A stretch of DNA of 64,000 bases from an uncultured Shewanella sp. (GTDB lineage Bacteria > Pseudomonadota > Gammaproteobacteria > Enterobacterales > Shewanellaceae): positions 14,561-78,560 of the forward strand of contig NZ_CANMIO010000017.1 of NCBI RefSeq assembly GCF_947497935.1, given 5' to 3'. The notes beneath the pieces were generated by a model. That model made no database searches and was not told the origin of the DNA. It worked only from the letters and a program-made list of their open reading frames with translations. Shown piece by piece: positions 35,879 to 38,713 of this stretch (position 1 is the first letter of the stretch; every line of letters starts with the position of its first letter). A program made the position numbers and the translations under genes.

Positions 35879-35968
35879 GTGCAGACACTGCTGCGAGACG
35901 CTGTGAATATGTCCCTATACGCTCTGCGGTTTCATCCCTGAAACCGAAGCCCGCAGCCGTATCTACAC
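35879..35968 (+). repeat. 90-bp foldback REP/MITE-like intergenic element, copy 1
   Basis: Ends GTGCAGAC.../...GTATCTACAC; internal hairpin GGTTTCATCCCTGAAACC; core 35920-35959 matches copy 2 inverted at 39/40. Confidence 0.8.
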
Positions 35969-36431
35969 GGGATAATTGGTGGAACCTTTTGGCTGTAGCT
36001 GTTCGGTTTCTAACTTGAAAATGCCCCAAAGTTAGCTAGGAAATAAGTTTGTTTACACCTGCTTATCAGCTTCGGCAATAATTAAGCTAATGAGAGGCGC
36101 AAAATTCAAGACTAGCGTCTGAGTTATCATATGGGCCGCAGCCTAGTGACTTTGTTCTTTATTCTTTAATAGCGTCTAGCTGCATCTGAAATTACTTAAC
36201 TCAATTGTTAACTATACCCTTATTGTGACTTATTCTCCTGAGTGAGCAATGCAATTTGAGCATTGATTGAGGTTCTTGGTTTCATTCAAAAACAGAAACT
36301 GGGGGAGAGATTCTTCTACATCATAACTCATTGTTAACAAATTGGTTTGCTGTTATTCTTGAGCCAATAAAGTACTGGCACCTGTTCTTATTAAGACCGT
36401 TCTTATTCTGAGTTCAAACTGATATACTTTT

Positions 36432-36773
36432 ATGCTTTTTATACATTTCGGAGGAAATTTGAGGCTATTCGTAACGAGTAAAGCAGGTAAAAAGATTTAC
36501 CTTCAAATGACAGCTCTTACTAAAAGAGAGCTCATGAATAAAATTGGCGGGCATAAATTTACTCTCGAGGGCAAGTTGTACACTGTTAGTAACGTAAAAG
36601 CTGAACCATCGAATGAGAATGCTGCCGTTTCAATGGTCATTGGCGGAGCCATAGGTCTTCTTGGTGGAGTGGCTGGTGTTCTAGCTGGAGGAGTTCTTGG
36701 CGGATTCTTTGGAAACGAAAAAGATAAGAAGGATATTCTTATGGTTGAGCGTTTCAATGGGAGTAAGTCGTGA
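36432..36773 (+). CDS. Hypothetical protein with glycine-zipper-like hydrophobic segment (cassette ORF)
   Basis: VIGGAIGLLGGVAGVLAGGVLGGFFG; likely TTG start at 36459 after GGAGG. Confidence 0.65.
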   Translation: MLFIHFGGNLRLFVTSKAGKKIYLQMTALTKRELMNKIGGHKFTLEGKLYTVSNVKAEPSNENAAVSMVIGGAIGLLGGVAGVLAGGVLGGFFGNEKDKKDILMVERFNGSKS

Positions 36774-37240
36774 ACATAAAGGTTTTAGGGGCAGCAAGTA
36801 TCCTTGCTGTAATTTGCTTCTTTTTTACAGCAAATCAAGATTCTGCAATGCAGTATATTCGGGAATTTTTAGAGTCTGGGTACCTGATGATAATTTGCTT
36901 GGTTTTTGTTGTAGTTTCTATTTTATGCCACGCTATTTTTGTTCCTGAATCAAACTTAGATGTTCCGATGTTCAAGAGTAATCAGATGTGGATTCTTGAG
37001 GTTATTGTGAATATTGCGACGTATGCGGCAGTAACATCAACAGCAATTACCCTATTGAAAGCTATCTATATTCAGAAGTTTTACGGTGACATACAGTATT
37101 TTCACCAATTTGAAAGTTATGATATTTATACGATGTTCGCGGTGAGCGGTGTACTTCTTTGGTTCTCGATGTTCAAGTGTTGGCAATTGTTTTACGAAGC
37201 ATTAAAAACAACAGAAAGTGCAAAAGTACAAAAAGCGTAA
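36770..37240 (+). CDS. Hypothetical multi-pass membrane protein (cassette ORF)
   Basis: About 3-4 hydrophobic segments; GTGA overlap with the previous ORF; stop codon lies inside the attC 1L site. Confidence 0.75.
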   Translation: MNIKVLGAASILAVICFFFTANQDSAMQYIREFLESGYLMIICLVFVVVSILCHAIFVPESNLDVPMFKSNQMWILEVIVNIATYAAVTSTAITLLKAIYIQKFYGDIQYFHQFESYDIYTMFAVSGVLLWFSMFKCWQLFYEALKTTESAKVQKA

Positions 37241-37328
37241 CAAGTTGCTCAATTGGGATAAAAACCTTCGGCACTTTTCGCTGCGCTTAAGTTAACCCAT
37301 TTTTTTGCTCATTAGCAAAGCGTTAGGC
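37235..37328 (+). other. Integron attC site (94 bp)
   Basis: GCGTAAC (1L) ... TTGCTCAAT / ATTAGCAA pairing with an extrahelical C ... GTTAGGC (1R). Confidence 0.85.
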
Positions 37329-37341
37329 CAAAAGGATAATT

Positions 37342-38106
37342 ATGGAGTTCTTAAAAGGAGCAAAGGATTTTGCAAGGAACCCACTGGGTATTGTTGCCCT
37401 ATTTATATCTTTGATTTATGGGTTTGCTTCACTACTGCTTGGGGCGTCAGCAGACAAGTTAGAGTCGTTAGAACGTTGGCCTTTGCTTGTTTTCGTTGTC
37501 ACTTTTCCATTTGTAGTACTTTATGTTTTTTACAAATTGGTTACGGAGCATCATGGAAAGCTATATAGCCCCGGTGACTACAAAGATGATGACTCATTTC
37601 TTAGAACTTTATCTCCAGAAGAAAAAGAAAAGAAATTGGAAAATGACGCTAAAGAAGCCACTGGGGATGTCTTTATTGAGAAAGCTCAACCAAGTCAAAG
37701 GGCATCGTTCTCAGCAACTAAAACACGCATTCAACAAGCCGAGAAACATGTTATTAATATGCTTTCCGCCGAATTGGGGGTTACTCCTAATATTGACGTG
37801 CAGATAAGTACTGAGAAATACACCTTCGATGCAGCATATTTTAAACCAGGGTCAAGCGCCACAATACTTGAGGTTAAATATTACTCACAACCAAGAATTA
37901 CGTTCAAAGCAGTACAAGAATTTGTTTATCGAGCAAAGCTGGCTGCTGAATACATGACGATAGATACCAAATTTATACTTGCTTTGGTTCTTGACGGTGA
38001 TACCGATAAATTCCAACTGATCGCTGACGCATGGTCAAAATCTCTAGAAGACTCTGGTCTAAATATTGAGTTGAGGGTTATAAGCGGAGAGGAAGTCAGT
38101 GCCTAA
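37342..38106 (+). CDS. Cassette ORF: two N-terminal TM helices plus a PD-(D/E)xK-like C-terminal region
   Basis: Begins after GTTAGGC and ends in GCCTAAC (exact complement); FDAAYFKPGSSATILEVKY motif. Confidence 0.75.
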   Translation: MEFLKGAKDFARNPLGIVALFISLIYGFASLLLGASADKLESLERWPLLVFVVTFPFVVLYVFYKLVTEHHGKLYSPGDYKDDDSFLRTLSPEEKEKKLENDAKEATGDVFIEKAQPSQRASFSATKTRIQQAEKHVINMLSAELGVTPNIDVQISTEKYTFDAAYFKPGSSATILEVKYYSQPRITFKAVQEFVYRAKLAAEYMTIDTKFILALVLDGDTDKFQLIADAWSKSLEDSGLNIELRVISGEEVSA

Positions 38107-38163
38107 CTAAGCCAGCCATAGGGACTTCCACACTGCGTGATCCAGCTCCTGGTGGCGTCAGGC
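38101..38163 (+). other. Degenerate short attC site (63 bp)
   Basis: GCCTAAC ... GTCAGGC (GTT changed to GTC) with imperfect internal symmetry, followed by AAAAGGAG and ATG as after the first attC. Confidence 0.55.
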
Positions 38164-38176
38164 AAAAGGAGAAAGT

Positions 38177-38557
38177 ATGAAGATCGAAGTACTCGAAGAG
38201 CCATTGTATGCAGGTGCTATAGCGTGTGAGACCGGTGCATTCAGAAAATGGCTGAAGATAAAGCACCCTGACGTCGAGGTAATCACTCCCTATGAAACAA
38301 ACAAGGTAGATCTACACGATTTTACTCTGGTTATGCCATTAGTTCAGTTGATTACTGATGGCTCAGTTCTTAGCTATCTGAACTTAGTTTTAGAATACTC
38401 AAACTATTACTTTTCATATATATGGGGTCAGAGTAAACTTTATTTGAGAACCATATTTTTCCTCATCCCACGCCCTAGCTTTAGGCTCCTTGCTCTAACG
38501 TATTTCTCTCCAAAAATAAGTTTGTACCATCCCAAGAGAGATAACTTGGTAAGTTGA
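38177..38557 (+). pseudogene. Probable truncated cassette ORF
   Basis: Strong RBS and start after the attC; the C-terminal part after about 38400 looks like read-through into non-coding sequence; no closing attC. Confidence 0.45.
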
Positions 38558-38565
38558 ATAATCAG

Positions 38566-38655
38566 ATGTCGCTGCGGCTGTGGGCTTCGGTTTCAGGGAT
38601 GAAACCGCAGAGCGGCCATGGATGGCTTTACAGCGTCCCACAGAAGTAGCGACAT
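38566..38655 (-). repeat. 90-bp foldback REP/MITE-like intergenic element, copy 2 (inverted relative to copy 1)
   Basis: ATGTCGCT.../...AGCGACAT ends; core 38575-38614. Confidence 0.8.
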
Positions 38656-38713
38656 GTGAACTGACTATCACCTTTCTTGATTCTGAACTGACTTATTACT
38701 CGCTAAACTCATC

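Follow-up and report, generated by a model that had tools for sequence, protein, structure and literature searches.

Epona is a cassette of the chromosomal integron of Vibrio cholerae N16961 that combines a two-transmembrane (TM) 'holin' domain with an Mrr_cat nuclease and protects Escherichia coli from phages; outside V. cholerae it is reportedly all but absent (Darracq et al., bioRxiv 10.1101/2024.07.02.601686). SNIPE, a nuclease bound to the membrane, cleaves the DNA of phages while it is being injected, and its anchor prevents self-cleavage (Nature 2026, PMC13190303). Here we describe a protein of 254 amino acids (aa) with a comparable layout, encoded at positions 37342..38106 (+ strand) of a 64,000-nucleotide stretch of an uncultured Shewanella sp. 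(contig NZ_CANMIO010000017.1, positions 14,561 to 78,560; hereafter the window). The open reading frame (ORF) is confirmed as an intact single-gene integron cassette. Three parts make up its product: a membrane hairpin of two helices, a charged linker of variable length and a C-terminal domain with the predicted fold of PD-(D/E)xK (restriction-endonuclease-like) nucleases. We give about an even chance to the reading that it is a stand-alone, membrane-tethered nuclease cassette defending its host against phages or other incoming DNA.

Epona resembles this protein in being a small single-gene integron cassette whose product joins two N-terminal TM helices to a nuclease of the PD-(D/E)xK superfamily. 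However, the Mrr_cat and holin Pfam models gave no match to the 254-aa protein up to an E-value of 0.1, Epona and this protein being compared by description only, and the family described here, unlike Epona, extends across many phyla. SNIPE is likewise a single protein with an N-terminal membrane anchor and a cytoplasmic nuclease, a topology that is predicted in our case, but it has a single TM helix and combines a DUF4041 DNA-binding domain with a GIY-YIG nuclease; Pfam detected neither domain in the 254-aa protein. Card1, Can2 and Cdn1 are the closest solved relatives of the C-terminal domain, both by profile (Card1, 6wxw) and by fold (8q3y, 8z4i and 6xl1). Nevertheless, the 254-aa protein lacks their CARF or SAVED sensor and their CRISPR or cyclic-oligonucleotide-based anti-phage signalling system (CBASS) context, and it is predicted to be membrane-tethered rather than soluble. 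Shedu (SduA, DUF4263) is also a single-gene PD-(D/E)xK nuclease of defence whose N-terminal domains vary and which is frequent in chromosomal integrons, but neither DUF4263 nor the PADLOC Shedu model matched the 254-aa protein. The same was true of SLATT and of every other PADLOC system model. The known kind is that of the compact nuclease cassettes of integrons, and the uncatalogued membrane module is the more novel lead.

The C-terminal domain (aa 129-254; 37726..38103, +) was identified with AlphaFold, Foldseek and a profile match to Card1. Modelled alone, with 45 sequences taken from the loci of many phyla as input, it reached a predicted local distance difference test score (pLDDT) of 92.4 and a predicted template-modelling score (pTM) of 0.86. 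The order of elements in the model is H-E-E-E-H-E-H-E, and the core alpha-beta-beta-beta-alpha-beta fold is present. A Foldseek comparison against the Protein Data Bank (PDB), one of the checks proposed in a preliminary description of this DNA, returned matches that were nearly all PD-(D/E)xK nucleases; their probabilities reached a maximum of 1.00, and the query TM-scores lay at 0.45-0.55. These included BstEII, the restriction-like endonuclease domains of R2 elements, Cdn1, NucS, Can2 and SfsA, as well as bunyavirus cap-snatching endonucleases, Card1, Avs4, Cap4 and McrC, and a search of the viral structure library BFVD gave the same PD-(D/E)xK picture. When the profile of the domain was compared with PDB sequences, the best match was Card1 (6wxw, E=0.002), and the helix-1 Glu, the strand-2 Asp and the ExK motif lay in register with the catalytic residues of Card1. 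A phmmer search of the domain against the PDB yielded only T-cell-receptor noise and was set aside.

Four residues form the putative catalytic site. E134 (37741-37743, +) is on helix 117-145, D163 (37828-37830, +) on strand 160-168, and E177 and K179 (37870-37872 and 37876-37878, +) on strand 172-181. The preliminary description had read this motif as D-x(11)-EVK; the motif is there, but its spacing had been miscounted and is D163-x13-E177-V-K179. The E134-D163-E177-K179 tetrad is kept in 43 of the 45 nuclease-type relatives, drawn from many phyla, and the D, E and K are invariant in one of the alignments. The C-terminal domains of the 45 relatives are 11-29% identical to this one, except those of the two closest homologues, at 39% and 59%. 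A few relatives gave weak Pfam matches to NERD, PDDEXK_9 and DpnII-MboI (E 0.003-0.005), and also to NOV_C. Nothing meaningful was retrieved for the 254-aa protein itself with Pfam, NCBIfam or PADLOC, and weak library matches to DMRL_synthase, Cas3 and MFS were dismissed as noise. The model and these comparisons support a PD-(D/E)xK superfamily fold for the C-terminal domain, with a predicted nuclease activity, and the membrane-anchored PD-(D/E)xK protein suggested in the preliminary description is upheld in this respect.

The N-terminal membrane module (aa 1-100; 37342..37641, +) is nearly invariant in homologue alignments. It consists, in order, of NPLG, TM1, a short loop with ERWP, TM2 and the juxtamembrane stretch HHGKLYxPxDY..D.SF. 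TM1 spans aa 15-35 (37384-37446, +) and TM2 aa 47-67 (37480-37542, +), corresponding to AlphaFold helices 14-36 and 42-71, respectively. The juxtamembrane motif reads HHGKLYSPGDY..D.SF in this protein (aa 70-86; 37549-37599, +), its general form being HHxKLYxPxD[YF]. It is followed by a low-complexity linker (aa 91-128; 37612..37725, +) in which 15 of 38 residues are charged and whose length differs among homologues. The two hydrophobic helices and the charged linker had already been recognized in the preliminary description, and both hold. The full-length AlphaFold model had a pLDDT of 77. Since lysine and arginine are more abundant before TM1 than in the short loop, and there are two helices, both ends of the protein are predicted to be cytoplasmic.

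No Pfam, NCBIfam or PADLOC model covers the membrane module, and a family of phage proteins without an assigned function, phrog_26238, begins with it (match 5e-8). A profile of the module retrieved 2,549 cluster representatives at E<=1e-3 among 1.84 billion, of which 1,159 were at E<=1e-10, the clusters being defined at 50% identity. Among the best 150 of the 2,549 matches, the module is almost always N-terminal and lies mostly in proteins of ~250-300 aa. It was found in many phyla, from E. coli to Scalindua and Bacteroidota, and many of the matches in other phyla cover only residues 1-100, their C-terminal halves being other domains. These heads are an HTH_45 winged helix (8 members), a prokaryotic YEATS domain (pYEATS; 6 members, best E 8e-14), a receiver domain (Response_reg; 5 members, best E 1e-12) and, in a single weak match, a ubiquitin-like YukD domain. 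What is conserved at the core of the family is thus the membrane hairpin rather than the nuclease, a point that the preliminary description had missed. The E. coli member has 256 aa, with the two-TM module and a receiver-like head.

Since the module carries other heads elsewhere, the nuclease may not be the effector. The roles of the two ends could be reversed, the hairpin being a holin-like or SLATT-like effector that oligomerises and depolarises the membrane in abortive infection, and the variable PD-(D/E)xK head mainly a sensor of foreign DNA or DNA ends that sets off the membrane module. Such an exchange of roles would fit a module that is the constant, highly conserved part of the family and is elsewhere joined to binding or sensing heads (Response_reg, HTH_45 and pYEATS), and the TM part of Epona has been described as a holin domain. 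The near invariance of the TM residues also suggests specific helix packing. We nevertheless consider the reversal unlikely. A pure sensor would not need the full catalytic tetrad that nearly all nuclease-type members have, no Pfam holin or SLATT model matched, and two short helices per chain would require high-order oligomers.

Homologues of the 254-aa protein were found at full length in 297 instances, none of them annotated, with hosts including Vibrio, Aeromonas, Pseudoalteromonas, Halomonas, Marinobacter and Tolumonas and others beyond these. The closest relatives are full length and 72-83% identical. Homologues of V. vulnificus and V. rotiferianus (42-56% identity) are complete cassettes in long arrays of Vibrio cholerae repeats (VCRs), of which the loci contain 10-18, with a canonical attC on both sides and the stop codon inside the GCCTAAC box. 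Homologues in Stutzerimonas, an Oleiphilaceae metagenome-assembled genome, Vreelandella, Parashewanella and Sessilibacter likewise have attC-like sites immediately beside them, and a rigid scan found no such sites at the homologue loci of most other phyla. The family is present in 8 of 301 genomes of the order (2.7%), always in single copy, and in none of the ~56 other sampled species of the genus. This patchy distribution, the low-GC island in which the gene lies and the presence of a different gene at the corresponding spot of a relative identify it as an accessory, horizontally moved gene.

A search of the neighbourhoods of 80 loci revealed no conserved partner gene, from which we conclude that the protein acts alone. 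Some of the neighbours are defence genes and many others housekeeping genes. Abi_2 and HNH genes flank the homologue of 72% identity, and the defence genes further include NotI, retron reverse transcriptases, SIR2/ThsA-like genes and a component of ABC-3C.

The family might alternatively not be immune in function. Its members would then be membrane-tethered signalling or regulatory proteins. Their hairpin would respond to an envelope or lipid cue, or be the place of a regulated release, and their heads would perform ordinary tasks of regulation or DNA processing; for the version with the nuclease, these might be the processing of incoming DNA or a part in repair. Heads of the receiver and winged-helix kinds are typical of signalling, the E. 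coli member is called 'response regulator' by the Prokaryotic Genome Annotation Pipeline (PGAP), the module is strongly conserved across phyla and many neighbours are housekeeping genes. However, a sparse, mobile distribution disfavours a housekeeping regulator. Within the order the family is rare, patchy and never duplicated, and the E. coli member occurs in only 28 of 5,426 complete genomes, where it sits in a mini-island between yfgI and guaA, next to a 504-aa AAA ATPase and an insertion sequence (IS) remnant. The family is, moreover, carried on integron cassettes and has no conserved partner kinase or other gene. A regulatory role for the family, and likewise a processing or repair role for its nuclease version, therefore appears doubtful to us.

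The cassette itself is delimited by two attC sites. The attC of the preceding cassette (37235..37328, +) has the boxes R'' GCGTAAC, spacer AAGT and L'' TGCT(C)AAT, followed by L' ATTAGCA, spacer AAGC and R' GTTAGGC. This R' box (37322-37328) is the 5' boundary of the 254-aa cassette, and the ATG lies 14 nt downstream of it, preceded at a distance of 5 nt by an AGGA ribosome-binding site (37333-37336). The ORF is intact, and its TAA stop codon (38104-38106) is overlapped by GCCTAAC (38101-38107). The latter is the R'' box of the cassette's own short attC of 63 nt (38101..38163, +), which continues with spacer TAAG and L'' CCAG(C)CAT and ends with L' CTCCTGG, spacer TGGC and R' GTCAGGC.

These sites were recognized with an architecture scan of rigid layout, R''(7)-4-L''(8, one bulged base)...L'(7)-4-R'(7), for which Vibrio arrays and the genome's own integron provided the reference sites. 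Across both strands of the 4.9-Mb genome (9.8 Mb), nine sites had at most one R-box mismatch and 7/7 L-box pairs; five of these nine are evident attC sites, the one at 37235-37328 among them. The site at 38101-38163 has 5/7 L-box pairs, a bulged C and one R-box mismatch (GTCAGGC). Sites of this quality occur at ~4.6e-5 per base, so that the chance of one starting exactly at the stop codon is ~5e-4. Both sites align end to end with the attCs of the genome's integron and with Vibrio VCRs, and the bottom strand of the second folds with its R and L boxes paired. Minimum-free-energy folding of the two candidates was unremarkable (z -0.5 to +0.9). The bare 7-mer boundary words are not above chance in the window (5 seen vs 7.4 expected), nor is GTTRRRY (134 vs 130), and the motifs alone therefore cannot carry the claim of a cassette. 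A first and a third attC were also sought in the cluster with the architecture scan, but none was convincing, and we claim two sites.

The attC at 38101-38163 is probably crippled, since the conserved GTT core is mutated to GTC in its R' box. The preliminary description had presented a complete cassette running from GTTAGGC to GCCTAAC; both boundaries do fit attC, but the completeness has to be qualified by this mutated core and by the lack of an adjacent integrase. The sole integron integrase of the genome is encoded on another contig with an array of its own (C7:127177-128154; 369 bits vs a cut-off of 265). With intI elsewhere and core genes around it, the cluster in the window is an integrase-less cassette cluster (CALIN). 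In this integron (C7:122700-128154, intI included), a divergent array contains six or more attC sites, which are ~100 nt long and have the form AYMTAACAAG...GGGCGTTAGGT. More cassettes are present on contig C35 (C35:19411-19884), and isolated attC sites on contigs C5 and C3.

The cluster occupies an island of ~35.8-38.7 kb with a GC content of 36-43%, compared with 45-50% in its surroundings, located between two core genes of this marine Shewanella, which encode an acyl-CoA dehydrogenase and an alkyl sulfatase. Besides the 254-aa ORF, the island has three more small orphan ORFs, all in the same orientation. In the nearest sampled relative (G019:C45), the flanking genes (fadE-like and sulfatase) are ~78-81% identical, and the same intergenic spot holds a different small ORF of ~190 aa instead of the 254-aa cassette ORF, which marks the spot as a hot spot for small accessory genes. 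A scan of the island against Rfam gave only Ysr224, below threshold (23 bits vs a gathering score of 70), and a promoter scan was not above chance (4 sites vs 6.5 expected).

The preceding cassette (36432..37240, +) contains two overlapping orphan ORFs of 113 aa (36432-36773) and 156 aa (36770-37240). The former has a glycine-zipper-like C-terminus and a weak Bacteriocin_IIc-like match (E=0.007), and the latter encodes a multi-TM protein; the pair could be a toxin and its immunity protein. Downstream of the attC at 38101-38163 follows an orphan ORF of 126 aa (38177..38557, +) with a good ribosome-binding site, which has no family match and for which the architecture scan gave no clear attC.

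The 254-aa ORF might also be thought to encode a toxin, selfish or addictive, through which the cassette cluster is kept stable, or to be an inert, unexpressed relic. Toxin genes abound in chromosomal integrons, the attC is crippled and no promoter is evident. We nevertheless judge this very improbable, as there is no conserved antitoxin-like partner, the ORF is intact behind a good ribosome-binding site, and the closest relatives, full length and 72-83% identical, argue for purifying selection.

Two inverted copies of a dispersed hairpin repeat bracket the cassette cluster. The left copy is at 35887..35977 (-), inverted relative to the right copy at 38557..38665 (+; 38550-38665 at its widest), which bounds the low-GC island and into which the 3' end of the 126-aa ORF reaches. 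The repeat is 80-116 nt long and has 22 copies in the genome, and its fold stands out from that of shuffled sequence (z = -5.9). A copy of 98.9% identity is present at the corresponding spot of the nearest relative. Other copies are located, for example, at C7:128314-128384, C35:20809-20889 and C5:114658-114738; the first of these lies ~160 nt beyond the end of intI, and those on C35 and C5 are within ~1 kb of attC sites. This suggests a connection between the repeat and the activity of integrons; it could be a secondary insertion site or a miniature inverted-repeat transposable element (MITE). The repeats are not attC sites themselves, as the RYYYAAC...GTTRRRY ends are absent, and no significant Rfam match was obtained for them.

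Several observations weigh against the reading of the 254-aa protein as a membrane-tethered defence nuclease. None of the Foldseek E-values of the C-terminal domain was below 1e-3, and PADLOC gave no match to the protein. The mean pairwise identity is 75% for the membrane module and 37% for the C-terminal domain, which is unusual for a mere anchor; in SNIPE, by contrast, the N-terminus is the least conserved part (PMC13190303). The receiver, winged-helix and pYEATS heads are not obvious effectors, and given these heads the nuclease may be a sensor or the family regulatory. No member of the family was found among 50,697 phage records or on true plasmids, the sole plasmid match being a mislabelled E. 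coli chromosome. The housekeeping genes among the neighbours of homologues have to be counted here as well. Finally, the cassette is probably immobile in this genome, with the core of its own attC mutated and no integrase nearby.

What the analysis establishes is the gene with its cassette boundaries, the fold and the conserved catalytic residues, the status of the Vibrio homologues as cassettes and the patchy distribution; the anti-phage effector role put forward in the preliminary description is plausible. For a defence nuclease held at the membrane, we infer topology, activity, role and trigger as follows. The product would be an inner-membrane protein whose cytoplasmic PD-(D/E)xK nuclease is attached by a flexible charged linker to a hairpin that has its two ends on the cytoplasmic side. 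Such tethering would hold the nuclease off the nucleoid. The hairpin and the HHxKLYxPxD[YF] motif would probably drive the assembly of oligomers and serve as a switch. Upon infection, the nuclease would cut DNA at the membrane. Its target would be the incoming genome, or else DNA of any kind if the protein works by abortive infection.

A broader and more tentative proposal, which we hold to be possible but not probable, concerns the HHxKLYxPxD[YF] module as a whole. It could represent a large uncatalogued family of one-protein membrane switches with swappable heads, a new modular immune class that spreads partly on integron cassettes. The hairpin might then sense a universal effect that phage attack has on the envelope, or itself perforate the membrane, and the heads, namely the PD-(D/E)xK nuclease, receiver, winged helix, pYEATS and ubiquitin-like domains, might sense or execute.

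Integron cassettes, most of them uncharacterised, are known to store compact anti-phage genes, and the present cassette is a small test case with obvious point mutants. It would show whether membrane tethering of a non-specific nuclease is a recurrent means of separating self DNA from incoming DNA, its conserved anchor and other nuclease fold providing the contrast to SNIPE. The membrane module is the more valuable lead, as its function would annotate thousands of proteins.

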